From positions 74,922-138,921 of the forward strand of contig JAPLXC010000002.1 of assembly GCA_026396275.1 (NCBI GenBank): a DNA stretch of 64,000 bases, read 5' to 3'. The notes under the pieces are model-generated. The model ran no database searches. It saw only the letters and a list, made by a program, of their open reading frames with translations, and was not told the origin of the DNA. This document shows, in pieces, positions 8,396-36,164 of this stretch. Numbering within the stretch: position 1 is the first letter of the stretch; every line of letters starts with the position of its first letter. This DNA comes from Candidatus Moraniibacteriota bacterium (GTDB lineage: Bacteria > Patescibacteriota > Minisyncoccia > Moranbacterales > JAPLXC01). A program made the translations under genes and the position numbers.

Positions 8396-9361
8396 ATGAC
8401 TGTAAAATATATTGCCGTCACAAAAGAAAACAGCGGAGAGCGCCTTGATAAATTCCTAAAGCGGGAATTTTTTTCGTATTCTCGGGGAGAAATTATCAGA
8501 AATATCAGAGCCGGAAATATTCTGGTGAACAGCAAAAAAGTAAAGTCCAGCTATGTTTTGAAAGAAGGAGACATTATTAAATCAAAAATTAAAAATCAAA
8601 AATCAAAATTAATTTCCAATTCAAATATAAAATTCAGCGTTATTTATAAGAATGAAGACATTATTATGATCAATAAGCCAGCAGGGTTGAGTGTCCACCC
8701 CGTAAAATCAAATGAAAATGATACTTTAGCAAACGGATTGCTGGCAAAATTTACAGAAATAAAAAATATCCATGATGACTCTAAAAATGCGCATCTGCGC
8801 CCCGGAATTATTCACCGGCTAGATAAAGACACTTCGGGCGTAATGGTTATTGCGAGAAATATGAAAGCGTATGAAGGGTTAAAGAAAATTTTTAAAGAGC
8901 GTAAAGTCGATAAGAAATATTTAGCAATCGTCCGCGGAATCTTAAAGGATAAAAAAGGAGTTATCAAAAAACCGATTGCTCGAGCAAAAACTTATAGAAA
9001 GCAGGTAATTGCCGGAAGGAAAACTAAAACGAAAATTCGCGAAGCTATAACTGAATACAAAGTACTAAAAGAGTTTGATAATTACTCTTTACTGGAAGTT
9101 ACTCCCAAAACCGGCCGGATGCACCAAATTCGGGTGCATTTGTTTTCCATCGGCCATCCGATTGTGGGAGATAAGTTATATAAATTAAAAAAAGCTAAGC
9201 TTTTCCCGGCAAAGCTTAGCTTTAAAATGACTAGGCAACTGCTTCACGCCCAGCAGCTCATCTTTGACTTGGGCGGAAAAAAATATAAATTCAGCGCCAG
9301 GCCACCGAAGGATTTTGCGGATTTTCTGGGTTTTCTTGACGAAGGGAAAATAAAAAGCTAG
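8396..9361 (+). CDS. rluD: RluA-family 23S rRNA pseudouridine synthase (RluD-like) with N-terminal S4 domain
   Basis: Catalytic motif HRLDKDTSGVMVIA. S4-like N-terminus. The track start at 8330 overlaps speH, so ATG 8396 is preferred. Contains an AT-repeat low-complexity insert (KIKNQKSKLISNSNIK). Confidence 0.75.
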   Translation: MTVKYIAVTKENSGERLDKFLKREFFSYSRGEIIRNIRAGNILVNSKKVKSSYVLKEGDIIKSKIKNQKSKLISNSNIKFSVIYKNEDIIMINKPAGLSVHPVKSNENDTLANGLLAKFTEIKNIHDDSKNAHLRPGIIHRLDKDTSGVMVIARNMKAYEGLKKIFKERKVDKKYLAIVRGILKDKKGVIKKPIARAKTYRKQVIAGRKTKTKIREAITEYKVLKEFDNYSLLEVTPKTGRMHQIRVHLFSIGHPIVGDKLYKLKKAKLFPAKLSFKMTRQLLHAQQLIFDLGGKKYKFSARPPKDFADFLGFLDEGKIKS

Positions 9362-9432
9362 TATGAAAAAACTGGACAAAAAGGCAAAAAACTTTGTTTT
9401 TAATTTAAGTAAAAATTAACTATAATTACCAT

Positions 9433-9876
9433 ATGGATAAGAAAATAATTGAATTTAATCAAGTTTCCCGTCAAAAGAAGATGCCGGTTCTGCGAGCGGG
9501 AGATATTATTAAAGTGCATCGTAAAATAATTGAAGGAGGGAAAGAAAGAGTCCAGGTTTTTGAAGGAATCATTATCTCGGTTAAAGGAAAGCAAAGTTCC
9601 TCGCCAATGATAAGGGTGCGCAAAGTTTCAGAAGGCGTGGGAGTAGAATTGATCATTCCTGTCTATTCTCCGCAAGTCAAAAAAATTGAAGTGGTAAGGC
9701 AAGCAAAAGTGCGAAGGGCAAAATTGTATTATCTGCGGGAGCGGTCAGCCAAGTCGCTCAGAATGAAATACAAGGAATTGTCAGAGTTTGCAAAGGGCGA
9801 GGAAGAAGAGAAGAAACCGGACAATACTGAAAAATCAGAAGCCAAACTTCCTTTAGAGAAGCACAAAGAAAAATAG
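9433..9876 (+). CDS. rplS: 50S ribosomal protein L19
   Basis: L19 signature RAGDIIKVHRKIIEGGKERVQVFEGIIISV... plus a Lys/Glu-rich C-terminal tail. Confidence 0.85.
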   Translation: MDKKIIEFNQVSRQKKMPVLRAGDIIKVHRKIIEGGKERVQVFEGIIISVKGKQSSSPMIRVRKVSEGVGVELIIPVYSPQVKKIEVVRQAKVRRAKLYYLRERSAKSLRMKYKELSEFAKGEEEEKKPDNTEKSEAKLPLEKHKEK

Positions 9877-10034
9877 TTTTTAGCGCCCAAGACGCAAAGC
9901 GGCATATTAACTGTTCACTTTACTAAGATTTGCGGATGTGGTGCCTGCCTGCTTGTCTCGCTAAAGCTATGGAGAAGCGGGCGGTCAGGGAACCCGGTAT
10001 ATTTACCCCGCATCAATTTCTGTGTTCTGAAGAA

Positions 10035-10118
10035 AGGGGACGTGGCGGAATTGGTATACGCGATAGGTTGAGGACCTATGCTCGCAAGAGCGTGAGGGTT
10101 CAAGTCCCTCCGTCCCCA
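10035..10118 (+). tRNA. tRNA-Leu(GAG)
   Basis: Acceptor ggggacg/cgtcccc. Anticodon arm atagg-ttGAGga-cctat. Long variable arm gctcgcaagagcgt. T-arm gaggg-ttcaagt-ccctc. Confidence 0.8.
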
Positions 10119-10282
10119 CACAGGAATTGGTGCGGGGCGCATATGCCCCAGTACTAAGTCCAGGGTGGACTAGTACGGGGTAAACTTGAGGTGCATGTGG
10201 GAGTAATCTCCCTAGAGGTTTTTACCCCGTATTTGGAGCGAAGCGACATAGTTCGGGGCAAATCCTCTCATCCGCACTTGAA

Positions 10283-10470
10283 GGATCCTTAGCTCAGTTG
10301 GTAGAGCGCTTCGCTTATTCACCCCGCACCAAAATTAAGGGCAATTAGCTCAGTTGGCTAGAGCGCTTCGTTTACACCGAAGATGTCGTAGGTTCGAGTC
10401 CTACATTGCCCACTAGAATTTGGTGCGGGGCAAACCGAAGATGTCGTAGGTTCGAGTCCTACAGGATCCA
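10283..10470 (+). pseudogene. interrupted tRNA-like gene 'X' (Val-like body). Its 5' half (10283-10320) and 3' half (10436-10470) have complementary acceptor strands ggatcct/aggatcc and are separated by a 115-nt insert that contains a complete tRNA-Val.
   Basis: 5' half: acceptor, D-arm gctcagttggtagagc, stem cttcg, loop cttattc. 3' half: cgaag, atgtc, T-arm gtagg-ttcgagt-cctac, aggatcc. The insert is bounded by the inverted repeat ccccgcaccaaaatt / aatttggtgcgggg. Confidence 0.55.
10339..10412 (+). tRNA. tRNA-Val(TAC), nested inside the split tRNA-like gene X
   Basis: Acceptor gggcaat/attgccc. Anticodon arm cttcg-ttTACac-cgaag. T-arm gtagg-ttcgagt-cctac. Confidence 0.85.
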
Positions 10471-10493
10471 CTAATAATGTTTTTTAAAATTTT

Positions 10494-10565
10494 GCCAGGC
10501 TAGCTCAGTGGTAGAGCGAAGGACTGAAAATCCTTGCGTCCCCAGTTCGATTCTGGGGCCTGGCA
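10494..10565 (+). tRNA. tRNA-Phe(GAA)
   Basis: Acceptor gccaggc/gcctggc. Anticodon arm aagga-ctGAAaa-tcctt. T-arm cccag-ttcgatt-ctggg. Confidence 0.85.
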
Positions 10566-10736
10566 CAATAGGCAAAATTTAGTATGGGGCAAGCTGAAAA
10601 CTTATGTCGGCAGTTTTTACCCCGTCGAATGATTGGGGCGATCCTGTCCCCAAGCACAACGCCAAGCATTCCACTATAACTAATATGATTAAGGAATGCT
10701 AATTACAGTAATGTTACTACTAAGTATTAGTAGTTA

Positions 10737-10809
10737 GGGTCCGTAGCTCAGCGGTTAGAGCGGCCGGCTCATAACCGGTTGGTCGCAAGTTCGAATCTTG
10801 CCGGACCCA
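10737..10809 (+). tRNA. tRNA-Met(CAT), elongator or tRNA-Ile2 (lysidine) type. Not initiator-like (G1:C72 pair).
   Basis: Acceptor gggtccg/cggaccc. Anticodon arm gccgg-ctCATaa-ccggt. T-arm gcaag-ttcgaat-cttgc. Confidence 0.75.
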
Positions 10810-10855
10810 CATAAAAAATTCAAAATTTAAAAATCAAAATGCAAAACTTAAGAAA

Positions 10856-10926
10856 GCGGAATTAGTATAGTGGTAGTACGCCACCTTGCCAAGGTGATGG
10901 CGCCGGTTCGATTCCGGTATTCCGCT
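10856..10926 (+). tRNA. tRNA-Gly(GCC)
   Basis: Acceptor gcggaat/attccgc. Anticodon loop ttGCCaa. T-arm gccgg-ttcgatt-ccggt. Confidence 0.8.
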
Positions 10927-11022
10927 CAATTTTAGGTTCGCTGCAGCACCGCTGAAGGGTGCTAAGCGCCCGGCATTCTTTAGCAGTACCGGGCGATTCC
11001 GCTCACTCGCTCTAAAAGAAAA

Positions 11023-11053
11023 ATTCCTCAAATGGTGAGGAATTTTTCTTTTT
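11023..11053 (+). terminator. Rho-independent terminator
   Basis: aattcctca-aatgg-tgaggaatt followed by TTTCTTTTT. Confidence 0.65.
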
Positions 11054-11100
11054 GTGTTAAAATGAGTCAAAACGTAACTTAGTGCGGTTAAACCTTTAAT

Positions 11101-11175
11101 TGCGACCGTAGTACAGTGGCAGTATACGACCTTCCCAAGGTTGAGACGTGGGTTCCCTGCCTGCCATTGCTCCAA
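11101..11175 (+). pseudogene. degenerate tRNA-Gly(CCC)-like copy
   Basis: Has a Gly-like D-arm gtacagtggcagtat and anticodon arm cgacc-ttCCCaa-ggttg, but the T-arm (gtgggttccctgcctg) and the acceptor 3' strand are degenerate. It aligns to the 3' half of the neighbouring split Gly gene. Confidence 0.4.
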
Positions 11176-11177
11176 AT

Positions 11178-11425
11178 GCGGATGTAGTATAGTGGTAGTG
11201 CCCCAGTACTAAACTTGCCTTACGACAAATTAATACGGGGCAGGCATAACCTTCCCAAGCCCCGCACTAAATCTGCACCGCACTTTGTGCGAGAATAGTA
11301 TAGTGGCATTACACTTGCTTCCCAAGCAAGAAACGCGGGTTCAATTCCCGTTTCTCGCTCCGTTATTTGTGCAGATTTTAGTGCGGGGCAAGGTTGAAGC
11401 GTGGGTTCGATTCCCATCATCCGCT
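11178..11425 (+). pseudogene. interrupted tRNA-Gly(CCC)-like gene. The 5' part (11178-11259) and 3' part (11389-11425) have complementary acceptor strands gcggatg/catccgc. It hosts a complete tRNA-Gly(CCC) and also carries an extra 45-nt hairpin insert after the D-arm.
   Basis: 5' part: gcggatg-ta-gtatagtggtagtg ... taacc-ttCCCaa-g. 3' part: caaggttg-aagc-gtggg-ttcgatt-cccat-catccgc-t. The insert is bounded by ccccgcactaaatctgcac / gtgcagattttagtgcgggg, with a 4-bp direct repeat caag at both junctions. Confidence 0.55.
11289..11359 (+). tRNA. tRNA-Gly(CCC), nested inside the split Gly(CCC)-like gene
   Basis: Acceptor gcgagaa/ttctcgc. Anticodon arm cttgc-ttCCCaa-gcaag. T-arm gcggg-ttcaatt-cccgt. 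Confidence 0.85.
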
Positions 11426-11531
11426 CAGGCATTTGGCAGGCGGGGATTCTCATATCCCGCTCAAAGATTCTCTGAAAAATTGGCTTATTTCAACCCCGAA
11501 TATTTTCCTAGAATAAGCCAAATTTAGACCA

Positions 11532-11556
11532 AAATCCCTTATTTAAGGGATTTTTT
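11532..11556. terminator. symmetric hairpin with T-runs (bidirectional terminator-like)
   Basis: aaatccctta-ttt-aagggattt, followed by TTTTTT. Confidence 0.55.
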
Positions 11557-11713
11557 GGTTTTCCAAGCTTGACTTTCTGCCTGCAATCTGCTAGCATGGT
11601 AGGTTGGCATAATATGCCTTTTTTGTTTGGGCTATTTGCCAGCCCCCTAAACCACAGAAGGTTCAGGGCAGGGCAGTTTCTGAAAAACGTGCCTTAACAA
11701 TTAATGATAGCTT

Positions 11714-12277
11714 ATGGAACTTATTAGTATAATCGCCACTCTGCCGATTGCTGGCGGGCTGACTTTCGGAACGCCAACCATAGTAGAGGAACCAATCAAT
11801 ACTAATACAAAAATAGAATTTGTGGTTGAGAAAAATATACAACTTAATAACGGTTTTGTTGAAAGCAAAAATAATATTCCATATAACTCCGAGAGCTATA
11901 AACCAGTGAAAGGCGAAGAAGAAATTAAAAGAGAAGAAAAACTTTCCAAGTGGGAAGAAAAGCAAGCTCATCTGAAAAGCAATCTTCCTAAAGAAAAATT
12001 TACTGGAAACTTCTCGGCTTATACTGCCGCCGCTGACGAGTGTGGAAAATCGGACGGGATTACCGCGAGCGGCCTTAAGGTTAAAGGAAAAAGAACCCTT
12101 GCCTGTCCTCCGCAGTATCCTTTCGGAACAAAAGTTAAAATTGAAGGATACGGAACTTATGTCTGCGAAGATCGCGGGGGAGCGATCAAGAGTAACCATT
12201 TTGACATTTATATGGAAACTAAATCTCAAGCTTTCGCTTTTGGAAGAAGGCATCTCGAAGCGGAAGTGGTGGATTAA
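11714..12277 (+). CDS. 3D-domain (MltA/RlpA-like double-psi beta-barrel) cell-wall-binding protein
   Basis: C-terminal region ...GLKVKGKRTLACPPQYPFGTKVKIEGYGTYVCEDRGGAIKSNHFDIYMET..., which is typical of the 3D domain. Confidence 0.5.
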   Translation: MELISIIATLPIAGGLTFGTPTIVEEPINTNTKIEFVVEKNIQLNNGFVESKNNIPYNSESYKPVKGEEEIKREEKLSKWEEKQAHLKSNLPKEKFTGNFSAYTAAADECGKSDGITASGLKVKGKRTLACPPQYPFGTKVKIEGYGTYVCEDRGGAIKSNHFDIYMETKSQAFAFGRRHLEAEVVD

Positions 12278-12287
12278 TCCATCCAAA

Positions 12288-12348
12288 TGTCATTCCGGGC
12301 TTGACCCGGAATCTAGAAAATTGGATTCCCGCCTTCGCGGGAATGACA
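12288..12348. mobile_element. MITE-like element (TGTCATYC...GRATGACA family), copy 2, intergenic
   Basis: tgtcattccgggcttgacccggaatc...cccgccttcgcgggaatgaca. It has the terminal inverted repeat and two internal hairpins. Confidence 0.55.
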
Positions 12349-12931: not shown

Positions 12932-13581
12932 AACAATCTTTCCTGCTTATCTTCTTCTGGCTCTATTTTCATATTTTCAACCGCCGGATTTTCTTCCGGT
13001 TTCTTTGCCATTTCCAGAACTTTAGGAATTTTTTTGAAGTCCTCGATTAACACGCTTCGCATTCCGCCGTTATAGAGCGCAGCGGCGGGGTGGTAGAGGG
13101 CATAAAAGACCCATGTGCCAATCTCAGGGATATTTCTTCGTAGCGCTTTTCCGTGAATCTGGGAAATTTTTTGATTGGGCAAGAATCTTTCCATCGCGTG
13201 TTTTCCTAGAAGCACAATTAATTTCGGATCAATTATTTTAATTTGTTCCACAAGCCACGACCAGCAGGCCTCCACTTCTTCCGGAAGGGGATCGCGGTTT
13301 CCCGGCGGGCGACACTTGATTATATTAGCAATATAAGTATCCTCCCTTTTTATATCTATTGTCTCTAATAGTTCATCCAGAAATTTGCCGGCTGCTCCGA
13401 CAAATGGTCTTCCCAACTCATCTTCCCTTTGTCCTGGTCCTTCACCGATAAACATAATTTCGGCTTCAGCGTTTCCCTCGCCGGGAACAACCACCCGGCA
13501 GGTTTCACGTAAAATACACTGGTTGCATTTCATCATGCGGTCATTGAGTTCGTTTAGTTGTTCTTGTTTCCTTTTTGTCAT
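12928..13581 (-). CDS. udg: uracil-DNA glycosylase, family 4 (UdgA type)
   Basis: Motifs GEGPG(x7)GRPFVGAAG, CRPPGNR and HPAAALY. Conserved N-terminal Cys residues. The annotated start codon lies inside MITE copy 3, so an internal Met (MMKCNQC) may be the true start. Confidence 0.8.
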   Translation of the reverse strand: MTKRKQEQLNELNDRMMKCNQCILRETCRVVVPGEGNAEAEIMFIGEGPGQREDELGRPFVGAAGKFLDELLETIDIKREDTYIANIIKCRPPGNRDPLPEEVEACWSWLVEQIKIIDPKLIVLLGKHAMERFLPNQKISQIHGKALRRNIPEIGTWVFYALYHPAAALYNGGMRSVLIEDFKKIPKVLEMAKKPEENPAVENMKIEPEEDKQERLF

Positions 13582-13633
13582 CCTGAACTTGTTTCAGGAT
13601 CTAATTAGATTCCGGATCAGGTCCGGAATGACA
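13576..13633. mobile_element. MITE-like element (TGTCATYC...GRATGACA family), copy 3, overlapping the UDG start
   Basis: tgtcatcctgaacttgtttcaggatc...ccggatcaggtccggaatgaca. Confidence 0.55.
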
Positions 13634-13635
13634 AT

Positions 13636-14213: not shown

Positions 14214-15038
14214 TTATTTATCTCTTAATGTTTTCAAAATCTTTATGTCTTCTTCCACTCCCGGCCATTCGGTTTCACAGAGCATATCCATGCTATTTTT
14301 CTTGGCGAAAGAAACTATATTTTTAAATGCTTCCAAGCCAATTTTGCCTTTTCCAATATGTTCATGACGGTCTTTTTGGGATCCGCAGTCCGATTGGCTA
14401 TCGTTGGCGTGGATTAATTTAATATTTTTCATCCCCAGTTCTTTGTCTATTCTTTTGAGAGTGTTTTCAAAATCAGTCCAATCATATCCTGATGCAAAGG
14501 AGTGTTGAGTATCCAAGCATATACCTGCGATAGTAACACTATTTACGCCCTTAATAATTTCTGCCAGTTCTTGTAAATTATCTCCGATAATTTCTCCTGC
14601 TCCAGCGCTGTTTTCTAAAAGTAATTTTGTATTTCCGTCATAACCTTCCAAAGATTTCTTTAACATCTCAATAGTTTTTTTGATTGCTTCTTTTTGTCCT
14701 AGCTCTTTGGCGGTGCCAATATGAGTCATTACGAATTTAGCGCCCAGCATATTTCCTCTTTCCAATTCGTCGCGAATAGTTTTAACGGAACCATAACGGA
14801 TGCGATTATTGAGTGAAGCTAAGTTAATGTAATAAGGAGTATGTATATAAACTTCCTTAATTTTGAATTTTAATTTTTGAATTTTAAATTGTTCACAAAT
14901 TTCATTTGTGAGTATTGGCGCTTTTCCTCCCTGTGGCGGGCGAGTAAAAATCTGAATAACTTCGCAACCCAAATTATGCCCGTTTTTTGGTGCGTTTTGG
15001 ATTCCTCCTGCTACTGAAACATGAGCGCCAATGTTCAT
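14214..15038 (-). CDS. nfo: endonuclease IV (AP endonuclease family 2)
   Basis: MNIGAHVSVAGGIQNAPKNGHNLGCEVIQIFTRPPQGG... and TIM-barrel Nfo motifs (HxxYLINLAS, HANDS). Has an in-frame AT-repeat insert (QFKIQKLKFKIKE). Confidence 0.8.
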   Translation of the reverse strand: MNIGAHVSVAGGIQNAPKNGHNLGCEVIQIFTRPPQGGKAPILTNEICEQFKIQKLKFKIKEVYIHTPYYINLASLNNRIRYGSVKTIRDELERGNMLGAKFVMTHIGTAKELGQKEAIKKTIEMLKKSLEGYDGNTKLLLENSAGAGEIIGDNLQELAEIIKGVNSVTIAGICLDTQHSFASGYDWTDFENTLKRIDKELGMKNIKLIHANDSQSDCGSQKDRHEHIGKGKIGLEAFKNIVSFAKKNSMDMLCETEWPGVEEDIKILKTLRDK

Positions 15039-15305: not shown

Positions 15306-16265
15306 TTAAATAATTTCCCAGCCCTTGTCGGTTTCTACTATGCGACCCTTCACTTCAAATCCGCTGGCTAAGATATGCCCACCTCCCCCAAAATGCCGGG
15401 CAATAGCAGAAACATCCACTCCTTTATAATCCTCCGAGCGCAAGCTCCCTTTGATTACTCCACTCTCGCGTTCAGAAAGTATAAGAGAGAATTTTGTTCC
15501 AGGCACGGTGTTAAGAATAGACGCTAACTGGGCGATATCATCTGTGGAGGCATTACATCCCTCAATATCTTCTTTGGTAAGAGCGGTAATTATCATCCCG
15601 TTTTTAGGGTTGATTTTAGCTTTTTCAAAAGCCCTCCCCCATAGTTTGAGAGTGGAAATTTTCTTGTTGGCTAGTGCGGCATCAATAATTTTGGATAAAG
15701 AAATTCCCTTTCTCATCAGGGAAGAAGCAATTTCCATCACTCGGGCTGTCGTATTGGAATGCTGGAAGTTTCCCGTGTCGGATAAGATTCCCAGCATTAG
15801 GGAGGCGGCAATGTTTTTGCTTATTTGCTCATTGGTGAATTCAAGATAATCGTAAACTATTTCACATACCGAAGAATAAGAAGAATCAATAATATTAATA
15901 TCTCCTTTGAGAGTAATGTCGGGATGGTGGTCGAGAAGAACTATAACTTGGTTTGGAAGAAGTTGATTTTTGATTTTATCGAACCCTCTTTCCACGCTGT
16001 CTGCAGCGATAACCGTTTCGTAGGATTTAAGATCGAGATGGTCCGGATATTCAAATTGTGAAGGAAAGGCAGATCCCAAAAGAGGAGGAAGCGGGTCAAA
16101 ACAGGCAATGTCAGCCAGCTTCCTTTTGTCTTTTAAATATTCTTTTAACGCCAGGACAGATCCCACTGTGTCTCCATCAGGCCCGGAGTGGGCAACTAAT
16201 AGAATTTTGTTGGATTTTTTAATGACGTAACGCAAGGCATTAAATTCACGGGCGAATTTGTGCAT
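15306..16265 (-). CDS. nrnA: DHH-family phosphoesterase NrnA (bifunctional oligoribonuclease / pAp phosphatase)
   Basis: DHH motif (LLDHHPD), the SGPDGDTVGS metal site, and the GGGH motif of the DHHA1 domain. Confidence 0.7.
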   Translation of the reverse strand: MHKFAREFNALRYVIKKSNKILLVAHSGPDGDTVGSVLALKEYLKDKRKLADIACFDPLPPLLGSAFPSQFEYPDHLDLKSYETVIAADSVERGFDKIKNQLLPNQVIVLLDHHPDITLKGDINIIDSSYSSVCEIVYDYLEFTNEQISKNIAASLMLGILSDTGNFQHSNTTARVMEIASSLMRKGISLSKIIDAALANKKISTLKLWGRAFEKAKINPKNGMIITALTKEDIEGCNASTDDIAQLASILNTVPGTKFSLILSERESGVIKGSLRSEDYKGVDVSAIARHFGGGGHILASGFEVKGRIVETDKGWEII

Positions 16266-16366
16266 AAAATTACAGAATTTGGAATTCAGTATTTAGAATC
16301 AAGAATGGGAATTACGAATTATGAATCAAGAATATTATTTATTCAAAATTCTAAATTAAAAATTCA

Positions 16367-16720
16367 CTATTCTAATTCTATAAGTATTTTTTCCACCTCG
16401 TCGGCTTTTGATTCGGTTTTGTCGAGTTGGAATTCAATCCGTGGAAGCGGTTTTGTGGAAAGCTTTTTATTAAGAACGCCCTGAAGGCGGTACATTTCTT
16501 TTTTAAGCGTTTCCATAACATAATTAGCTTCGCGCTCGGGGAAAATACTCACGAATATCCGAGTATAGCGGAGATCAGGAGTAGTGTCAACTTTAGCCAC
16601 AGTGACAAAGACCCCGGGCTTGAGGTCAAGTTCCCGGGTTATAATTTCAGCCACCTGGCGCTTAATTAGTTTGTTTATTTTTTCAAGGCGATGAGACATA
16701 AAATTAAATCCAAATTTCAA
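16367..16720 (-). CDS. rbfA: ribosome-binding factor A
   Basis: RbfA KH-like signature ...RQVAEIITRELDLKPGVFVTVAKVDTTPDLRYTRIFVS.... Sits downstream of infB, which is the conserved operon context. Confidence 0.8.
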   Translation of the reverse strand: MKFGFNFMSHRLEKINKLIKRQVAEIITRELDLKPGVFVTVAKVDTTPDLRYTRIFVSIFPEREANYVMETLKKEMYRLQGVLNKKLSTKPLPRIEFQLDKTESKADEVEKILIELE

Positions 16721-16816
16721 AATCCAAATTTCAAATGAATTTAAAAATCCAAATTTTTAAAATTTTTTCATTTGAGTTTGATTTGAAATTTAAACTTTGG
16801 ATTTTGATTTTTTCGG

Positions 16817-19346: not shown

Positions 19347-19580
19347 GCGGCGGGAGAGGGATTCGAACCCCCGGTACCCTTTCGGATACACCTGATTTCG
19401 AGTTCCCGCACAAAGCGGAAGGAGTGAGATTCGAACTCACGGTCCCGTTTCCGAGACACCGCATTTCGAGTGCGGCCCATTCAACCACTCTGGCATCCTT
19501 CCACTATATGCGGGACGCAGCAGGCCTACGTGTCCCGCACCAATTTTTGGTGCGGGATTCAACCACTCTGGCATCCCGCC
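19347..19580 (-). pseudogene. interrupted tRNA-Ser(CGA)-like outer gene. The 5' piece (19557-19580; acceptor ggcggga plus D-arm) and the 3' piece (19347-19413; anticodon loop, variable arm, T-arm, acceptor tcccgcc) flank the intact tRNA-Ser(CGA).
   Basis: Acceptor strands ggcggga/tcccgcc are complementary. The D-arm is identical to that of the inner Ser gene. The CCCGCACC/GGTGCGGG inverted repeat flanks the insert. Confidence 0.5.
19416..19502 (-). tRNA. tRNA-Ser(CGA)
   Basis: The reverse complement folds as: acceptor ggaagga/tccttcc, D-arm ccagagtggttgaatgg, anticodon arm ccgca-ctCGAaa-tgcgg, long variable arm gtctcggaaacgggacc, T-arm gtgag-ttcgaat-ctcac. Confidence 0.8.
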
Positions 19581-19599: not shown

Positions 19600-19800
19600 G
19601 GCTCACAAAGGGATTGCTCCCTTACGGCTTTTTCTCGACCCCGTAAGAAAGCGAAGGGTATAAGAGTTGAACCTGTGAGGGGATTGCTCCCCAACCGCAT
19701 TTCGAGTGCGGCGCATTAGACCACTCTGCCAACCCCCCGCTTCTCTACGGGGCGAGGCCGCTTCCTTTATTGAATCTCGGCCACTCTTCCAATTATATAA
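19600..19800 (-). repeat. array of further degenerate tRNA-Ser-like fragments (minus strand)
   Basis: A second ccgca-ctCGAaa-tgcgg anticodon arm at 19698-19715; duplicated variable-arm hairpins ggggagcaatcccc / gggagcaatccc; an unusual T-loop ttcaact; and a class-II-like 5' fragment ggaagag-tg-gccgagattc. Confidence 0.4.
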
Positions 19801-22641: not shown

Positions 22642-23097
22642 ATGCTATTCAATGTTCCCCAATTTATTGATGTGGAAGACAAAGTGGCCGGTCCCTTCAC
22701 GGCCAAGCAGCTTCTTTGGATGTTTGGAATGGGCGCGGTACTGCTAGTGCTCTGGAACATACTTGAAAAACCGGCTTTTTTTGTTTCCGCTGTTCCGATA
22801 GTTGCTCTTTTTATGGCTTTGGCTTTTTATCGCCCCTATAACCAGCCACTAATAAGATTTATTCTTTTTTCTTTACTGTTCCTTTTCCGCCCCAAGGTGT
22901 ATGTGTGGAAAAGAATTCCTCATAAAATAGCATCTCAGGCAGGAAAGAAAAAAACGCCTGCTACGATGGAAAAAGAAAAAAAGAAAATGCTCAATCCGGA
23001 AAATATAGAAGCGTTAGCGCGAGTGCTGGACAGCGAGGGCAGGGAACGGAATGAAAAAATTATGGAGATAATAAAGAGAAATCAAAAATCAAAATGA
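22642..23097 (+). CDS. VirB3/PrgI-like small membrane protein of the T4SS-like system
   Basis: 151 aa with two adjacent TM helices after an N-terminal ...FIDVEDKVAGPFTAKQLLWM... segment. Sits immediately upstream of the VirB4 ORFs. Confidence 0.4.
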   Translation: MLFNVPQFIDVEDKVAGPFTAKQLLWMFGMGAVLLVLWNILEKPAFFVSAVPIVALFMALAFYRPYNQPLIRFILFSLLFLFRPKVYVWKRIPHKIASQAGKKKTPATMEKEKKKMLNPENIEALARVLDSEGRERNEKIMEIIKRNQKSK

Positions 23098-23185
23098 AAA
23101 AATCAAGATTCTAAATCAAAATTAAAAAATTTTTAAGTTCTAAGGTCTCTTAATTTCAATTTTTTATCTTTTTGCATTTTGATAT

Positions 23186-23890
23186 TTGATTTTTAATATT
23201 GCTATGGAGTTACTACATTCGAAAAAATTAACCGCCGGGAGTGGAGCCAGCACGCAAAAGTACGTGGACGTTGAAGAGATTAAAAACGGAGTTATCGTTC
23301 TTAAAAACGGGTCTTTGAGGGCCATTCTTTTGGTCTCTTCCATAAATTTCGAGCTTAAGTCCACGGAAGAGCAGGACGCAATCGTCGGCCAATATCAAAA
23401 CTTCCTTAATTCTCTGGATTTCCCTGTTCAGATTATTGTCAGTTCCCGACGGCTCAATATTGGTCCCTATCTGGATTTTTTAGGGGATAAAGAAAGTCAG
23501 CAGACGAATGAATTATTGCGGCTCCAGATTTCCGAATACATAAACTTCATTAAAAATCTCACCGAGGTCTCCAATATAATGTCCAAGTTTTTCTATATCG
23601 TGATCCCCTTTTCTCCAGTGGAAACAAAAGAAGGAGGGCCTTTCCGGAAACTCACTTCAATGTTCAACCCTCGACAGTCAATACTGCGCAAGCGAGAACT
23701 TTTTGAGACATACGAAAACCAGCTGTGGCAAAGAGTGGATCACGTGGTTGCCGGGCTGAGCGGAACAGGAGTAAAAGTTACTCCTCTGGGTACTGAAGAG
23801 GTAATTGAGCTGCTGTATAATTCCTATAATCCAACAATCTATACCAACTCAATCGTCCGGGAGATTGAAAATATTGAACTAGGAAAATAA
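23186..23890 (+). CDS. VirB4/TrbE-like N-terminal domain, encoded as a separate ORF
   Basis: 234 aa ending 4 nt before the ATPase ORF. Together the two ORFs reach the normal VirB4 length (~840 aa). Own RBS (AGGAAA) precedes the downstream ATG. Confidence 0.5.
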   Translation: MIFNIAMELLHSKKLTAGSGASTQKYVDVEEIKNGVIVLKNGSLRAILLVSSINFELKSTEEQDAIVGQYQNFLNSLDFPVQIIVSSRRLNIGPYLDFLGDKESQQTNELLRLQISEYINFIKNLTEVSNIMSKFFYIVIPFSPVETKEGGPFRKLTSMFNPRQSILRKRELFETYENQLWQRVDHVVAGLSGTGVKVTPLGTEEVIELLYNSYNPTIYTNSIVREIENIELGK

Positions 23891-25722: not shown

Positions 25723-26253
25723 ATGTCCGAGCATGATCACAGGAGACGTTTGGCAGAAGCCAGAAAAAAATATCAGGATACGAAAAAAATTGCGGCTGAA
25801 GCCAAGACCTTGGTAAAATCCGCCACTCCCTGGGGAGTGTTTTCTTTACTTTCCCAATTTAATTTATTTGCTGACTGGGTCTACGCAGCAGCGCTCGCAG
25901 CAGCTATTTTTAAAGATTTTTTTTTAGACCTTATATTTGGTTTTATTCCTGCTGTTGGAGCAGTAATAACTTGGCTCGTTTCAATTTTTATTTTTTTCAT
26001 GATGATTCTTTCCAATACGCTAGAAAAAGACCGCACTGTCTTTCAGCGAACACTTATAAGATACATAACTCGTTTTCTAATCCTGATCCTAGTTACAATT
26101 TGTGAGTCTATCCCAGCGATAGAAGTATTACCACTGGAGACAATTGGAGTCATTGCAATTTATTTGTTTACTTTAGCAGCTAGGAAAAATGCAGAAGAAG
26201 TTAAAAAGAAAGCAAGGACCGCTCAGGCGTCAATGGAGGAAGAATATGTATAA
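25723..26253 (+). CDS. small integral membrane protein, T4SS-associated by position
   Basis: 176 aa with about 4 TM segments. Translationally coupled to virB4. Confidence 0.3.
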   Translation: MSEHDHRRRLAEARKKYQDTKKIAAEAKTLVKSATPWGVFSLLSQFNLFADWVYAAALAAAIFKDFFLDLIFGFIPAVGAVITWLVSIFIFFMMILSNTLEKDRTVFQRTLIRYITRFLILILVTICESIPAIEVLPLETIGVIAIYLFTLAARKNAEEVKKKARTAQASMEEEYV

Positions 26254-26336
26254 TAAATCAAAAATCAAATATCAAAATGCAAAATTTTATCCTTTTTAAA
26301 TTTTGATTTTTACATTTTGATTTTAGCGCAGCGCTT

Positions 26337-31328: not shown

Positions 31329-31361
31329 TTTTGAGAAATAAAAAGGCGCGTGGAGATTGCA

Positions 31362-31393
31362 TTACACAATACTGCGGCCGCAGTATTGTGTAA
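31362..31393. promoter_or_regulatory. 32-bp perfect palindrome (NotI GCGGCCGC core) between the RlpA-like gene and ksgA
   Basis: ttacacaatactgc-ggccgc-agtattgtgtaa. Candidate operator or terminator. No T-run follows. Confidence 0.45.
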
Positions 31394-31415
31394 CACGAAC
31401 TTCATTTGTTATTAT

Positions 31416-32198
31416 ATGCCCACCAAGTTAGGTCAAAATTTTCTGGTTAATAAAGATGTCGTTAAAAAGATTATTAAAACGGCAGGTCTAACGCCTGATG
31501 ATTTTGTTCTGGAAATCGGGCCGGGGAAAGGGATATTGACAGAAGAATTGGCAAAACACGAGGGAAAAGTTATCGCTGTTGAAATTGATAAAAAACTGGT
31601 GAATTTGTTACGTAACAAATTACATAACTGCAAAAATGTTGAAATTGTGAAAGGAGATATTTTAAAGATTAATTTAACTAAACAACTTACAACTAACTAC
31701 TTACAACGTATAAATTACAAAGTAATTGCGAATTTACCTTATTATATTACGTCGCCGATCATTAGGCTTTTTCTGGAAGCTGATAATCCACCGAGCGAAA
31801 TGATATTGATGGTTCAAAAAGAAGTAGCCGAGCGGATTGTCGCCCAGCCGGGCAAGATGAGCATTCTATCAGTGGCGGTTCAATATTACGCAAAGCCGGA
31901 ATTATTATTCACAGTCGGGAGGGAAAATTTTGATCCGGTGCCGGAGGTGGATAGCGCAGTAATAAAAATATCAAATATCAAAAATCAAATATCAAAATTA
32001 GAGAGTAAAGAATTTTTTAGAATAGTGCGGGCGGGATTTTGCGCCAAGAGGAAAACGCTTGCCAATAATTTGACCAACAGTTTTCATCTGGGGAAATATG
32101 AAGTGGAAGAAAAAATAAAAAAAACCGGATTTTTGCCAAATGTCCGAGCACAGGAGCTTTCAGTTGAAAATTGGAAGAAATTGGCGGGATTGTTCTAA
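31416..32198 (+). CDS. ksgA: 16S rRNA (adenine1518/1519-N6)-dimethyltransferase
   Basis: LGQNFLVNKDVVKKII and SAM motif LEIGPGKGILTEEL. The start was moved from the track's 31350 to ATG 31416 to exclude the palindrome. Contains an AT-repeat insert (ISNIKNQISKLESK). Confidence 0.8.
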   Translation: MPTKLGQNFLVNKDVVKKIIKTAGLTPDDFVLEIGPGKGILTEELAKHEGKVIAVEIDKKLVNLLRNKLHNCKNVEIVKGDILKINLTKQLTTNYLQRINYKVIANLPYYITSPIIRLFLEADNPPSEMILMVQKEVAERIVAQPGKMSILSVAVQYYAKPELLFTVGRENFDPVPEVDSAVIKISNIKNQISKLESKEFFRIVRAGFCAKRKTLANNLTNSFHLGKYEVEEKIKKTGFLPNVRAQELSVENWKKLAGLF

Positions 32199-32205: not shown

Positions 32206-33861
32206 CTACAGGAAAACTACTTTCATCATTATCATTCCGTACAAAACCACTACTCCCAAAATCCACCACGGCAGGCGCCGCGGATTTATACTTTTATTAA
32301 TAATTATCCAGAAGGCGAGACCGCCGAAAAACAGCGCCCACCAGAACAGCCGCGGTTCGTTAAATAATATCACACTCAAAACGAACGAAAGAAAAATTCC
32401 CGCGCCCACGATAATTTTTCCCCACTGTTCGCCAAAAAGGACGGGAACGGTGTACACCCCGTTTTTTTTATCTCCTTCAACGTCCTTGAAATCCTTGATG
32501 GGAAGCGCCAAAGTATAACCAATTACTAGAAGCGCCACAATGGAAAAGGGAAGGCCTTTTATATTCTGCTCAGGCGAAACCAGTATAAAACCGGAAAACA
32601 AAATCAGAAGTGATGCAATGGCGCTCACAAAGGTCGAAACAAAGGCAAATCGTTTGAGCCGCAGGGGCCAGCAAGAGTACAACCAGGCGATGGCTTGATA
32701 AACCAGAAGTAGCAAGGCGATTTTAAAATTAACAATGGCGGAAAACAAAATTGAAACCAAAAACAAAATCCAGCCGATGGTCTTGTATTCTTCCAGCGTA
32801 AATGTTCCTGTGGCCAGCGGTCTCGTCTGGTTGGTTATTTTATCAATATCTTTATCCTGAATGTCATTGATCACCACTGATGCTAGCCAGGCGCAGAAAA
32901 TGGATGACAAAAGAACCAAAAAACTGGAAACATTAAAAAAATTAAATGTGATCCAGCTATCAGTAAAAATAACTGCCAGTCCCATTCCCACCATAAGCAA
33001 GCCGCCGTGATAGATGAGCTGAGGGAATCTGGCATTTTTCAAAAAAGCTAAAAATCTGTTTTTCCAGTCAAAGAACACCCCCAGCAAGACAATTCCAATT
33101 AAAACCAAGGAATAAACCAAGCTCATCTTTATATTAAGGGTACTGACAATATCAGGGATTTCCCGCGAAAAAATTCTTGCCGGCGTCAAAAACATCTGGG
33201 CGACGTCTACATCCGTAACCGCTAAAAATCCTTTGGAAAAGCCCTTGACAGCAATAGTTATCCAGGAAGGAAAAGTCCCTAAAACAAAAAAGACAAGATA
33301 GGAAAGAAGGAAAAGGAACAAGGATTTTAGAATATTTTTTGATTTCAGAAAACTGTATAAGCCGATAAAGAGTATGGCAATAGCTACTTCTATTCTCACT
33401 CCGTAAGTCACTCCGATTTCCGGCGTGCTGCCGAAAAATGTAAAGAATCTAGTTATCAGTCCTTTGAGCCCGTCGAATTCATAAAAACTCCAGAATCCTT
33501 TTCCGTGGGAAATAATATAGTCCGCGATGGGAGGAGTAAGAATAATTAAATATCCCCAAAGGAGGACATTGGAAATTTTTCGAAAATCAGCGGATAAAAT
33601 TCTTTTTAAAATCCACAAGAAAAGCAGATAGGCGATCAGGAAGAAGAGGAAGGTGTGAGTGAACTCGTAAAAAATAAAAAGTCCGGATCGGGAGCGAAAA
33701 CCTTCCAGCCAGTTTTCAATGAGAATTCGAATTATTATAATGGCTGAAAAAGAAGCCAGCCAGAACCAGAAAGTAACGGGGCTGTTTTCAATCCGGTCAA
33801 TAATTTTAGGCAAGAACTTAGCCATAATTTTAAATCTGGCATTAAAAGTATTCTGTATCAA
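32206..33861 (-). CDS. polytopic membrane protein with a C-terminal UbiA-family prenyltransferase domain
   Basis: UbiA Asp-rich motifs NDIQDKDIDKI and KDFKDVEGDKK in the C-terminal ~280 aa. The N-terminal ~270 aa is an extra multi-TM domain. Confidence 0.5.
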   Translation of the reverse strand: MIQNTFNARFKIMAKFLPKIIDRIENSPVTFWFWLASFSAIIIIRILIENWLEGFRSRSGLFIFYEFTHTFLFFLIAYLLFLWILKRILSADFRKISNVLLWGYLIILTPPIADYIISHGKGFWSFYEFDGLKGLITRFFTFFGSTPEIGVTYGVRIEVAIAILFIGLYSFLKSKNILKSLFLFLLSYLVFFVLGTFPSWITIAVKGFSKGFLAVTDVDVAQMFLTPARIFSREIPDIVSTLNIKMSLVYSLVLIGIVLLGVFFDWKNRFLAFLKNARFPQLIYHGGLLMVGMGLAVIFTDSWITFNFFNVSSFLVLLSSIFCAWLASVVINDIQDKDIDKITNQTRPLATGTFTLEEYKTIGWILFLVSILFSAIVNFKIALLLLVYQAIAWLYSCWPLRLKRFAFVSTFVSAIASLLILFSGFILVSPEQNIKGLPFSIVALLVIGYTLALPIKDFKDVEGDKKNGVYTVPVLFGEQWGKIIVGAGIFLSFVLSVILFNEPRLFWWALFFGGLAFWIIINKSINPRRLPWWILGVVVLYGMIMMKVVFL

Positions 33862-33929
33862 GTATAATGTATTATGTATAATGAATAAAGAGTGATGAAT
33901 TTAAAAAATTGTGTTAATGTAACATAGTT

Positions 33930-36164
33930 ATGAAGGGTATTTTGGCTAATCTCAACCCCCAGCAGAAAGAGGCAGTCGCGACAACCGACGGACCGATTTT
34001 GATTATCGCCGGAGCGGGATCGGGGAAAACCAGGACTCTCACCCATCGGGTGGCATATTTGATAAGAGAAAAAAAGATCAATCCCCAAAACATTTTGGCG
34101 GTAACTTTTACCAACAAGGCGGCCGATGAGATGAGGGGAAGAATCATTAAATTACTAAAAACTGACAACCAACCTGCCTCGCCGGCAAGCGGGCAACTAA
34201 CAACTGCTTTGCCCCACGTCGGAACCTTCCACGCCATTTGCGCTAAGATTTTACGCCGGGAAATTGGAAAACTTGGCTACAAGAGTTCTTTTAATATCAT
34301 TGACGATCAGGATCAACTGGCTCTGGCGAAAAAAATTTGCAAAACACTGGAAGTTAATACTGATCAGTTTAATCCTCTTACTTTACTGGATGCAATCAGC
34401 CGCGCGAAAAATGAACTGGTTGATGTTGACCGGTACGAAGAAAATATTGGCGGATACTACGAAGAAATAGTAGTGAAAGTTTACAAAGAATATCAGAAAA
34501 CGCTTTTGGAAAACAATTCAGTTGATTTTGATGACCTTATTGCACTTACCGTGAAAATTTTTCAAAAGTTCCTCGATGTTTTGAGGAAATATCAAAAACT
34601 TTTTCGCTATGTTCTGGTAGACGAATATCAAGACACTAACCATGCTCAATACGTTCTGGTGAATATGCTCGCGAAAGAGCACCGCAATCTTTGCGTCGTG
34701 GGGGACGACTGGCAGTCAATTTATGGCTGGCGCCAGGCGGATATCAGAAATATCTTGAGTTTTGAAAAGGACTACCCGGAAGCCAAAGTGATTGCTCTGG
34801 AGCAGAACTACCGGTCCACTCAAGTGATCCTTGACGCCGCTTATGGGGTAATCTCAAAAAATATAAATCGCACTGACAAAAAACTCTGGACTGAAAAATC
34901 CGGCGGGCATTTAATTTCGGTGTATGAAGCGGAAGACGAAAAGGAGGAGGCGGAGTTTGTGACAGAGGAAATAATTAGATTAGTCGGAGAAAAAAGTTCG
35001 GGATCCTTCGACAGGGCTCGGGACGACAAAAATGGAAAATTTTCATTTTCCAATTTTGCCGTATTTTACCGAACTCACGCCCAATCCCGGATGCTAGAAG
35101 AGATGTTTTTGCGCCAATCCATTCCCTACCGGATCGTCGGCGGAATTAAATTCTATCAGCGCAAAGAAGTGAAAGACATTATTGCTTATCTGCGGCTCAT
35201 TCAAAATCCCAACGACTATATTTCGCTAGAGCGGATTATTGATGAACCAAAAAGGGGCATTGGAGAAAAGACACTGGAGTACTGGTCAGCGATTGCTAAA
35301 AAAAATCGTCTAGATTTAATTATAATGGGTCTCCAAATTTCTAATTCCAAATTTCTAATTTCTAATCAAATCCCAAATTCCAAATCCCAAATTAATTCCA
35401 AAATGGATGCAGTAGTTAAGTTCTGTGATTTTATCAAGCGAATGAGGAAATTAAGCAGAAAAGTAAAACTGACTGACCTGATAGAGAAAGTTATCAAGGA
35501 AAGCGGTTATGAAAAAATGCTTTTGGATGGAACAATGGAGGGAGAAACACGCTGGGAAAATATTCAGGAACTTTTGTCGGTGGCTAAAAAATATGACGAT
35601 CTTAAAGGAGAAGCGGCGCTGGAGGGGTTTCTTGAGGAAGTGGCGCTGGTGACCAGCACTGAAGATATTGATCAAAGCAAAAACGCGGTGCATCTGATGA
35701 CGCTTCACAGCGCCAAAGGACTGGAATTCCCTTTTGTTTTTATCGTCGGGCTGGAAGAGGGATTGTTGCCGCATTCACGAAGCACTTTATCAGCAGAGGA
35801 GATGGAAGAAGAAAGGCGGCTGATGTACGTGGGAATCACCCGCGCAAAAGTTAAGGTTTATCTTCTTTTCGCCAGAGAACGAACAATTTTTGGCTCCACT
35901 CAAGCTAATTTTCCCTCACGGTTTTTGGACGACATACCGCCGCATCTTATTGAAGATGCGGAAATAAAAAATTATTTTTCTAGCGGAACTAATGAAGCTA
36001 ATAAACTAAAAGCTAAATTTAAAGATGGTGACCGGGTAAAACATGATGAATTTGGCGAAGGGATTGTGATTTCTGTTCAAGATGATATCGCCACGGTAGC
36101 TTTCAGAAAAGCCGGAGTTAAAAATATTTCTTTAGAGTTTTCAGGACTTAGGAAATCAAAATAA
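33930..36164 (+). CDS. pcrA: UvrD/PcrA-family ATP-dependent DNA helicase
   Basis: Motif I AGAGSGKTRTLTHR, Ia VTFTNKAADEM, II VLVDEYQDTN, and VI VGITRAK. Contains a low-complexity AT-repeat insert (QISNSKFLISNQIPNSKSQINSK). Confidence 0.85.
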   Translation: MKGILANLNPQQKEAVATTDGPILIIAGAGSGKTRTLTHRVAYLIREKKINPQNILAVTFTNKAADEMRGRIIKLLKTDNQPASPASGQLTTALPHVGTFHAICAKILRREIGKLGYKSSFNIIDDQDQLALAKKICKTLEVNTDQFNPLTLLDAISRAKNELVDVDRYEENIGGYYEEIVVKVYKEYQKTLLENNSVDFDDLIALTVKIFQKFLDVLRKYQKLFRYVLVDEYQDTNHAQYVLVNMLAKEHRNLCVVGDDWQSIYGWRQADIRNILSFEKDYPEAKVIALEQNYRSTQVILDAAYGVISKNINRTDKKLWTEKSGGHLISVYEAEDEKEEAEFVTEEIIRLVGEKSSGSFDRARDDKNGKFSFSNFAVFYRTHAQSRMLEEMFLRQSIPYRIVGGIKFYQRKEVKDIIAYLRLIQNPNDYISLERIIDEPKRGIGEKTLEYWSAIAKKNRLDLIIMGLQISNSKFLISNQIPNSKSQINSKMDAVVKFCDFIKRMRKLSRKVKLTDLIEKVIKESGYEKMLLDGTMEGETRWENIQELLSVAKKYDDLKGEAALEGFLEEVALVTSTEDIDQSKNAVHLMTLHSAKGLEFPFVFIVGLEEGLLPHSRSTLSAEEMEEERRLMYVGITRAKVKVYLLFARERTIFGSTQANFPSRFLDDIPPHLIEDAEIKNYFSSGTNEANKLKAKFKDGDRVKHDEFGEGIVISVQDDIATVAFRKAGVKNISLEFSGLRKSK

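Follow-up and report, generated by a model that had tools for sequence, protein, structure and literature searches.

Tandem heptamers are known from cyanobacteria, in which the short tandemly repeated repetitive (STRR) sequences reportedly described by Mazel in 1990 have the units CCCCAGT, TTGGTCA, and CAACAGT, and palindromic repeats are known from Rickettsia, whose palindromic elements (RPEs), said to have been presented by Ogata et al. in 2000 (cited in PMC10969869 and PMC1779305), reportedly measure 100-150 bp, share a family consensus, and are inserted as whole units. Among prokaryotic simple-sequence repeats (SSRs) with units of 5-11 nt, heptanucleotide repeats form the most abundant class, and their proposed cause is polymerase slippage (Mrazek 2007 via PMC4679880; PMC4692102). 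Direct repeats of the heptamer TAACTGA occur in marine Beggiatoaceae, Cyanobacteria, and Bacteroidetes (MacGregor 2015, PMC4679880), and the tandem repeats of Borgs create disordered protein regions (PMC9879509). In this study, we analyzed AT-rich repeats that lie between genes and inside conserved enzymes in 64,000 nt of DNA (hereafter, the window) from contig JAPLXC010000002.1 (positions 74,922-138,921; assembly GCA_026396275.1), part of a metagenome-assembled genome (MAG) of Candidatus Moranbacteria, in the Candidate Phyla Radiation (CPR).

From comparative analysis, we consider it probable, with some reservation, that these repeats are heptanucleotide SSR arrays born and turned over in place, and that they are lineage-wide in Candidatus Moranbacteria and other Patescibacteria. 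In the searchable literature, we found such arrays described neither for CPR or Patescibacteria nor for Moranbacteria.

Results

The word AAAATCAAA occurred 23 times in the window, against 5.6 +/- 2.5 occurrences expected from dinucleotide shuffles. When 21-nt matches to (AAATCAA)n were searched in any phase on both strands and grouped as clusters, 10 clusters were found at ≤3 mismatches per 21 nt and 13 at ≤4, whereas simulations from Markov models of order 1, 3, and 5 gave 0.13-0.5 and 1.4-2.7 clusters, respectively, an enrichment of at least 20-fold. An earlier note on this DNA had held that base composition does not account for the motif, and this k-mer check, run within the window, agrees with it. 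A rival without any repeat process, in which base composition and codon bias yield ordinary low-complexity AT-rich sequence, would fit a window of ~42% GC and the A-rich codons of K, N, and I, but the order-5 Markov null was still exceeded (10 clusters vs. 0.5), the periodic signal described below is exclusive to 7 nt, and relatives carry perfect tandem units; it is refuted by the Markov nulls and the period test, and is the least credible of the explanations that we weighed.

A composition-free test of period counted 21-nt segments with at least 17 self-matches at lag p, with periods 1-3 excluded. Eight tracts had period 7 and six had period 14, and each other period from 4 to 13 had none or one. 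The defining property of the family is a 7-nt tandem period, not the word AAATCAA, and the motif is a heptanucleotide SSR of the general form AAAATNN, mostly AAATCAA here. The earlier note was right to see one repeat family, but it did not recognize the period and lumped several unit families: the stretches at 16265-16380, 16706-16811, and 58520-58566, and that in PcrA, are period-7 arrays of units other than AAATCAA. Besides AAATCAA, the period-7 arrays of the window are built of AAATCCA/AATTTCA, GAATNNN, CCAAATT/TCTAATT/AAATCCC, ACAACTT, GTATAAT, and CAACTGA/TAACTGA. Arrays are short overall (3-6 units) and mostly imperfect; those of (AAATCAA)n comprise 4-5 units at 13 loci, a density of ~13 per 64 kb or ~1 per 5 kb, and their consensus arm consists of two AAATCAA units followed by ATATCAA, AATGCAA, and AA.

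In 199 kb of Moranbacteria DNA, period-7 tracts were about four times denser in non-coding (0.57/kb) than in coding sequence (0.135/kb), and in the window the ratio was ~8. A KsgA profile search of genome contigs, whose listed matches were mostly from Chloroflexota and Firmicutes, provided a control set in addition to 19 Patescibacteria loci; among the matches listed, period 7 was prominent also in other Patescibacteria and weaker in unrelated bacteria. A strict form of the idea that one flavor of unit per genome invades its proteins was rejected, since the syntenic locus L083 has at least seven different units in 20 kb.

The gene of the CCA-adding enzyme (3869-5464) carries an AAAATNN heptamer array at 4296-4335 (plus strand) that encodes KIKNQNAKIKN. 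Judged from the aligned sequences, this array is a true in-frame insertion: the gene is exactly 21 nt (three units, 7 aa) longer than the uninserted ortholog of another Moranbacteria genome (L085), and nothing in solved CCA enzymes corresponds to KIKNQNAKIK. Thus, the proposal of the earlier note that lineage-specific inserts exist was supported by ortholog alignment, although they are best seen at this site, which it had not listed and which lies beyond the range that it covered. The loop follows RDFT(I/M)NAIAL[KR][IVL] and is taken by us to lie between class II motifs B and C. Among 116 orthologs, 44 had the loop at a ground state of 7-9 aa. Extensions in the rest ranged from +4 to +41 aa and peaked first at +6/+7 aa; as for multiples of 7 aa, only this first peak was visible in these orthologs, longer inserts being without clean periodicity. 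About 60% of Moranbacteria orthologs carried some array at the loop.

The units at this loop differ from genome to genome. The window has (AAAATNN)5, an ortholog whose protein is 80% identical (L084) has (TAACAAC)n, L085 has none, L086 has (ATTTCCA)4(AAAATCC)3, amounting to +42 nt, and L087 has (ATTTCGA)4...(AATTCAA)n. The closest comparison is offered by L208 and L209, whose CCA genes are 91.5% identical overall and fall in one 90%-identity protein cluster, and whose sequences flanking the loop are 100% identical for ~90 nt upstream and ~60 nt downstream. The loop of L209 is a degenerate (CAACANA)5, and that of L208 reads GAAGTCA, three times AAAGTCA, and AAAGCGA, which corresponds to EVKSEFE, the ground state, with exactly three perfect units added. 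A ground state enlarged by three units between identical flanks points to slipped-strand expansion in place from an A-rich seed and not to transposition of a preformed element. Such a change in unit number, the signature of slippage, was seen between relatives only (L208/L209, and the window vs. L085). Within protein clusters, differences in CCA length mostly reflected N-terminal start calls, and only P0221 and P0243 differed at the loop.

Whereas the copy of the window is a single-arm tandem array, the CCA orthologs P0127 and P0232 appear to hold composites of arm, GC hairpin, and arm, and in these inserts a GC-rich hairpin is apparently translated (LPRRQAG).

In all five coding copies of the window (those of the CCA-adding enzyme, RluD, Nfo, KsgA, and PcrA), the A-rich strand is the sense strand. 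No other orientation is open to them, since each of the three frames of (TTGATTT)3 includes a TGA. The coding arrays are confined to variable loops and linkers. The earlier note had placed the motif in spacers and in open reading frames (ORFs), which was confirmed, as were the K/N/I/S/Q-rich peptides that it quoted, a tolerated low-complexity sequence; its further claim that these inserts are absent from typical orthologs failed for RluD, Nfo, and KsgA. In RluD (8330-9361), the (AAATCAA/AAATTAA)n array at 8575-8614 (plus strand) lies in the linker that joins the S4 domain to the catalytic domain; this region aligns without a gap to Escherichia coli RluD and to the relatives L086, L208, and L209, with the same length or shorter. 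In Nfo (14214-15038, minus strand), the (AAATTCA/AAATTAA)n array at 14857-14890, on the minus (sense) strand, encodes QFKIQKLKFKIKE and makes the protein only 1 aa longer than a solved endonuclease IV.

In KsgA, an (ATATCAA/AAATCAA)n array at 31961-32002 (plus strand) encodes ISNIKNQISK in the linker between VDSAVI and FFR, and a weaker second array of ACAACTT units lies at 31682-31710 (plus strand) in a variable region of the protein. The stretch VDSAVIKISNIKNQISKLESKEFFR aligns to Bacillus subtilis KsgA without a gap. The linker, at 19 aa, is of modal length, 95 of 120 homologs having 18-21 aa here, and consequently the array is not an insertion. Linkers of the ISNIKNQxSK type were present in 12 of the 120 homologs, at 62-71% identity, so that the peptide, presented earlier as lineage-specific, is to this extent shared with distant orthologs. 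Other linker flavors at 60-71% identity include ISDFGFRISDF, ISNFKFRI, ITRNSQPETQN, and IKTQEHKNTRTKEQ, as well as longer GC-rich types such as ITPHPNPLPKGEG; at the DNA level, the ISDFGFRISDF of L082 is a near-perfect (ATTTCGG)4.

GC-rich peptides of the ITPHPNPLPKGEGDF type occupy the KsgA linker in P0006, P0011, P0017, P0032, P0038, P0050, P0087, and others, where they lengthen it to 22-46 aa from 19-21; the DNA behind them would be a CCCTCTCCCCAAAGGGGAGAGGG-like palindrome, and the longer GC-rich linkers suggest a class of GC-rich palindromic inserts at the same hot spot. Just upstream of the annotated ksgA start, 31351-31404 is a palindrome of 27+27 nt, 81% complementary and without a spacer; the NCBI protein has 260 aa and the ORF 282 aa.

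In PcrA, the CCAAATT/TCTAATT/AAATCCC arrays at 35334-35395 (plus strand) encode ISNSKFLISNQIPNSKSQI. The protein is ~12 aa longer than Geobacillus PcrA, but L081, L082, and L083 all have a low-complexity segment of similar length at this position, built of different heptamer units in each. In the PcrA ortholog of L082 (12605-15907), moreover, the DDWQ motif is followed by an intein (Hint/Intein_splicing), and PcrA of the window is without one. In brief, the loops of KsgA, RluD, and PcrA hold different units in different species with no gross change in length.

Between genes, seven hairpins had been proposed, of which five fold as long, imperfect, nearly GC-free AT hairpins (z = -2.1 to -6.6) at 16262-16382, 16700-16815, 23075-23200, 26250-26330, and 52984-53131, whereas those at 10810-10850 and 58520-58566 do not. 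The former is a single A-rich arm, AAAAATCAAAATGCAAAA (10811-10851, plus strand), which fills the spacer between tRNA-Met and tRNA-Gly, has no inverted partner, and gives a minimum free energy of 0. The stretch 58520-58566 showed no hairpin but a direct repeat instead, part of AAATCCA-type repeats (58520-58600, plus strand) that supply both the leader and the initial codons (MPNQIQNPKAK) of a PF05635 gene (58567-58950; 23S rRNA intervening sequence/four-helix-bundle, Avd-like).

Inverted AAATCAA arms lie in the spacer between the PrgI and TraC-like genes at 23070-23201 (arms at 23070-23108 on the plus and 23168-23201 on the minus strand), where the left arm provides the PrgI stop codon, and the spacer between a hypothetical gene and comM at 26248-26326 (30 nt, 80% complementary, 9-nt loop). 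A composite element at 52982-53136, between the divergent xerC-like and LysM-CHAP genes, consists of an AAATCAA A-arm (52982-53022), GC hairpins at ~53022-53036 and 53070-53089, and a T-arm (53093-53136). The infB/rbfA spacer holds a palindrome of AAATCCA/AATTTCA heptamers, A-rich arm first (16706-16811), and the spacer between rbfA and a DHH-family gene holds an AT-rich palindrome of GAATNNN heptamers, a separate unit family (16265-16380). Inverted arms measure 24-37 nt, and the regions between them (9, 66, and 70 nt) are unrelated in sequence. All four AAATCAA/AAATCCA palindromes read A-first. Four palindromes stand at co-directional, operon-like junctions (prgI/traC-like, hypothetical/comM, infB/rbfA, and rbfA/DHH) and one between divergent genes (xerC-like and LysM-CHAP). 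Two more period-7 tracts lie on the plus strand: a (GTATAAT)n-like one in the spacer upstream of pcrA (33854-33895), and a CAACTGA/TAACTGA array directly 3' of the LysM-CHAP stop codon (54607-54642), followed by a canonical terminator with a GC stem and a T-run.

Comparison with syntenic Moranbacteria loci (L081, L082, and L083) revealed that the elements come and go. The prgI/traC junction, with a 107-nt element in the window, has a spacer of 2 nt in L081 and 23 nt in L082, and upstream of comM there is a 12-nt spacer without an element in L082 and a palindrome built of other units in L083. No target duplication was seen at filled vs. empty orthologous junctions between the window and these relatives. 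The xerC/LysM-CHAP spacer of L083 has the same layout as that of the window, with arms of AAATTCC/AAATCCT that flank another GC hairpin, CCGCCACTGGCGG, such that the architecture is kept while the sequence differs on both arms; likewise, an AACT-core period-7 array of L083 (20011-20041) occupies the same position as 54607-54642. In both genomes, LysM-CHAP is preceded by a TTGACA-17-TATACT promoter and followed by a canonical GC-stem and T-run terminator, which indicates that normal signals coexist with the AT palindromes. A Sigma-70 and terminator consensus scan of 8-28 kb did not call the AT palindromes, a scan that is uninformative for AT-only stems. A promoter read by hand in the T-arm before the TraC-like gene was dropped, as it did not extend to the other copies.

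The GC-rich palindrome of the CCTGCCTG-N-CAGGCAGG type at 53070-53089 has a similar hairpin in L197 and none in the otherwise matching L123; this type, which also seems to be the hairpin translated in some CCA inserts, is probably a separate small family of palindromic insertions, perhaps one of the other kinds of insertion counted in the earlier note.

Metagenome contigs were scanned for the exact 23-mer AAATCAAAWATCAAAATGCAAAA, which was present in at least 120 stretches, from contigs of 28-59% GC, an uncalibrated count. Among the 124 unique copies listed, ~44% had an inverted partner within 260 nt and ~10% lay inside long sense ORFs (coding copies: 10 sense and 2 antisense). The arrays extend from the vicinity of a stop codon to that of the start codon that follows, and among these 124 copies no conserved termini were found, the arrays fading into flanks of variable length.

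These data bear on a non-autonomous mobile palindromic element, such as a MITE (miniature inverted-repeat transposable element), a repetitive extragenic palindromic (REP) sequence, or an RPE-like element, that would enter spacers and, in frame, genes. Inverted arms of 24-37 nt, presence and absence at orthologous junctions, the true in-frame insertion in the CCA-adding enzyme, a long sub-motif that several loci and many metagenome contigs have in common, and the apparently translated composites of P0127 and P0232 would all suit such an element. Nevertheless, a MITE or RPE is unlikely because there are no conserved ends or target duplications, the cores agree neither in sequence nor in length, the copies in genes consist of one arm of direct tandem repeats and are not palindromes, and different perfect tandem units occur at one site in different genomes. 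Moreover, L208 is accounted for by the ground state plus three units, three of the five coding copies are length-neutral, and the ORFs searched included no transposase; we therefore judge mobility as a whole improbable.

An uptake sequence (of the USS/DUS kind, i.e., uptake signal or DNA uptake sequence), enriched by biased natural transformation through point-mutation drive in tolerant codons, might explain the length-neutral coding copies in variable protein segments and the inverted intergenic pairs, and the window does contain comM and a type IV secretion system (T4SS)/pilin cluster. Against this stand the density of only ~1 per 5 kb vs. ~1 per kb for such sequences, the many different heptamer units in one genome and at one site, the form of a periodic array in place of a fixed 9-12-mer, the expansion by unit steps, and the occurrence of the motif in contigs of 28-59% GC, which is not species-specific. 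This explanation is extremely improbable, and uptake, like composition alone, is effectively excluded.

The arms are ordered. In 100 metagenome copies with enough flank on both sides, the T-rich partner of the A-rich arm lay downstream in 45 and upstream in one, and independent A/T-asymmetric heptamer tracts, scored with the query motif masked, were A-first in 16 cases vs. 3; these arm-level tests were used because a polarity test on 10-mer seeds was too noisy. Both strands read in the order A-arm to T-arm, as does a bidirectional intrinsic terminator (A-tract, hairpin, U-tract). A central GC hairpin was present, under strict criteria, in 11 of 50 copies. The copies lay at co-directional (79%), convergent (9%), and divergent (12%) junctions, vs. 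a background of 81, 10, and 9.5%. The suggestion of the earlier note that the repeats may act as terminators is favored by the geometry, but not by junction types equal to background or by copies within operons and between divergent genes.

In this context, the intergenic palindromes could be selected cis-elements, possibly factor-bound, with the coding copies as a spill-over of sequence preference. Candidate functions are bidirectional terminators or attenuators, REP-like RNA-stabilizing hairpins, and A/U-rich translation leaders that lack a Shine-Dalgarno (SD) sequence. The polarity (45:1 and 16:3) has the order of a terminator, central GC hairpins occur in the metagenome copies and at 52982-53136, and the xerC/LysM architecture was conserved while both arm sequences changed. 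Furthermore, arrays open at a stop codon or directly behind it, T-arms border on start codons, 11 of the 124 copies listed have an ATG within the motif that opens an ORF of at least 90 aa (MQNDN..., MQKSK...), and the analogous TAACTGA repeats upstream of starts have been proposed as sites of translational regulators (PMC4679880). On the other hand, convergent junctions are not enriched and divergent ones not depleted, and copies of the window lie within apparent operons (prgI-traC and infB-rbfA) and between divergent genes. The same junctions lack elements in syntenic relatives, GC pairs are missing from most stems, which the terminator scan did not call, canonical GC-stem and T-run terminators exist in the genome, and an Rfam scan of the whole window returned tRNAs only, with no match at any repeat element. 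Selected cis-elements are a serious but doubtful alternative to birth and turnover in place.

PF05635 genes also recurred in motif-selected metagenome loci (L171, L174, L193, and L206), where five of seven start at or just after an AAATCAA motif (MQNDN...), a weak association given the small numbers and the biased sample. An origin from a diversity-generating retroelement or reverse transcriptase, prompted by the Avd-like gene at 58567, was rejected: its neighbors are four T4SS-pilin paralogs and TrbL, with no reverse transcriptase.

Regarding the gene setting, the window has genes typical of CPR (a PrgI/TraC-like/VirB4/TrbL/pilin cluster, ComM, a 4152-aa ORF, and many tRNAs). Its KsgA and CCA-adding enzyme match proteins listed at NCBI under Candidatus Moranbacteria with 100% identity. 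The type-IV-secretion-like cluster is in two parts, at 22.6-25.7 kb and 55.5-60.8 kb, the latter with four tandem T4SS pilin paralogs (PF18895; 58947-60818) that adjoin TrbL-like and PrgI/TraC/VirB4-like genes. The giant ORF (36742-49200) lies where the GC content of the window is highest (0.49-0.51; 0.35-0.45 elsewhere). A tRNA-Ser(CGA) occurs twice in tandem on the minus strand (19415-19502 and 19651-19738), the second copy scoring far less in Rfam (41.7 vs. 56.5 bits), and a non-heptamer imperfect palindrome of 60 nt, TTGTCATCCTGAAC...GGAATGACAA, lies at 13575-13634 between uracil-DNA glycosylase (UDG)-family and metallophosphoesterase genes.

Discussion

The origin that we favor, array birth and turnover in place, would begin with slipped-strand or transient-misalignment errors of replication at A-rich seed sequences, for example the Lys-Ile codons AAA-ATx. 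In genes, selection would keep only net changes of 3n nt, typically 21 nt or 7 aa from three units. The A-rich strand alone can serve as sense given the TGA that (TTGATTT)n yields in every frame, and the K/N/I/S/Q peptides would be tolerated in surface loops only. In spacers, arrays take the form of polar palindromes, with an A-rich arm, a loop or small GC hairpin, and a T-rich arm. Most economically, these palindromes probably derive from bidirectional terminator-like hairpins whose A- and T-tracts were extended while intra-hairpin template switching maintained the complementarity of the arms. Once transcribed, the palindromes may act as long RNA hairpins, serving as attenuators or as REP-like protectors of 3' ends; this putative role as terminator or RNA hairpin is read from their geometry.

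Several observations sit uneasily with this proposal. Same-length linker swaps, as in KsgA, RluD, and Nfo, are unlike simple slippage and would call for compensating deletions or misalignment-templated substitutions. An A-first bias is not expected from neutral inverted duplication, so that selection or a directional mechanism is needed. A variant with two substitutions, AATG[C/T/A]AA, is common to six arms of the window. This sharing, and that of the 23-mer found in at least 120 metagenome stretches, could point to a conserved functional or mobile sequence rather than to independent slippage, although these stretches might reflect the mere abundance of AAAATNN arrays in CPR-rich metagenomes. 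Moreover, the proposal does not account for why the period is 7 nt. Several arms of the window have the sub-motif ATCAAAATGCAAAA, or ATCAAAATG[C/T/A]AAA, in common, a hint that arrays of one genome have to some extent been copied from each other or undergone gene conversion.

A bolder possibility, which we regard as unlikely, is that the A-arm/T-arm palindromes and single A-rich arms make up a Patescibacteria-wide system of cis-elements read by a dedicated factor, or that the arrays are written by an active enzymatic process that steps by 7 nt. Candidate roles of such a factor are termination or protection of RNA 3' ends without GC stems, and SD-independent translation starts on AAAATNN leaders. 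If so, the 23-mer in at least 120 unrelated contigs, the 45:1 polarity, and the recurrent starts within the motif (MQNDN..., PF05635 genes among them) would reflect function and not mutation bias.

If arrays are indeed born in place, many of the "lineage-specific inserts" and low-complexity tails of Patescibacteria would be by-products of one mutational process and not adaptive domains, and spacer palindromes in CPR genomes should not be annotated as mobile elements, nor automatically as terminators. In addition, the repeatedly rewritten loops of KsgA, RluD, PcrA, and the CCA-adding enzyme represent a natural experiment in protein tolerance. The findings sharpen two questions, namely 7 nt as a favored slippage unit in bacteria, and the termination or stabilization of transcripts in reduced genomes by AT-only hairpins, for which the strict A-first polarity gives a testable handle.

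Among described systems, the prokaryotic long SSRs (LSSRs) and STRRs are alike in having short 7-nt tandem arrays, mostly intergenic, with many units, genome-wide scatter, and presumed slippage. The repeats described here differ by their A-rich AAAATNN units, short imperfect arrays, and polar A-arm/T-arm palindromes, and by their in-frame recurrence in housekeeping enzymes of a CPR lineage; the unit sequences of STRR1-3 were not matched by units of the window (AAATCAA, AAATCCA, GAATNNN, CAACTGA, and others).

The TAACTGA repeats resemble them more closely, as heptamers in 2-6 copies in spacers beside start and stop codons, with no evident mechanism of mobility and with occasional copies in ORFs, in the stop-free orientation only and at protein peripheries (PMC4679880). 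TAACTGA/CAACTGA itself is contained in 54607-54642, although this array follows a stop codon and the TAACTGA repeats sit mostly upstream of starts. Unlike those repeats, the main unit here is AAATCAA, coding copies lie in internal loops of conserved enzymes, and inverted pairing is the rule, as opposed to the single indirect repeat reported in BOGUAY (PMC4679880).

RPEs share the occurrence of palindromic repeats between genes and in frame in conserved genes of a bacterium with a reduced genome, adding surface peptides; the coding copies here are instead single-arm tandem arrays, with units that vary per site, often length-neutral, and with evidence of growth in place. REP sequences and bacterial interspersed mosaic elements (BIMEs), like bidirectional terminators, offer a parallel in imperfect spacer palindromes, often within operons, with an A-tract/hairpin/T-tract order and some central GC stem-loops. 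However, the stems here are almost pure A-U made from 7-nt repeats, with no REP consensus and no REP-associated tyrosine transposase (RAYT), and their placement is without terminator-like bias. As in Borgs, fast-evolving tandem repeats occur both between genes and in ORFs, giving low-complexity peptides with the frame intact, but the units inside Borg ORFs are always divisible by three (PMC9879509), whereas a 7-nt unit keeps the frame only by steps of three units (21 nt) or by compensating changes. In conclusion, heptamer SSRs are a known kind of repeat, and what appears new, judged by the searchable literature, is their presence in a CPR lineage, the polar AT-only palindromes of SSR arrays, and the recurrent rewriting of loops in housekeeping enzymes.

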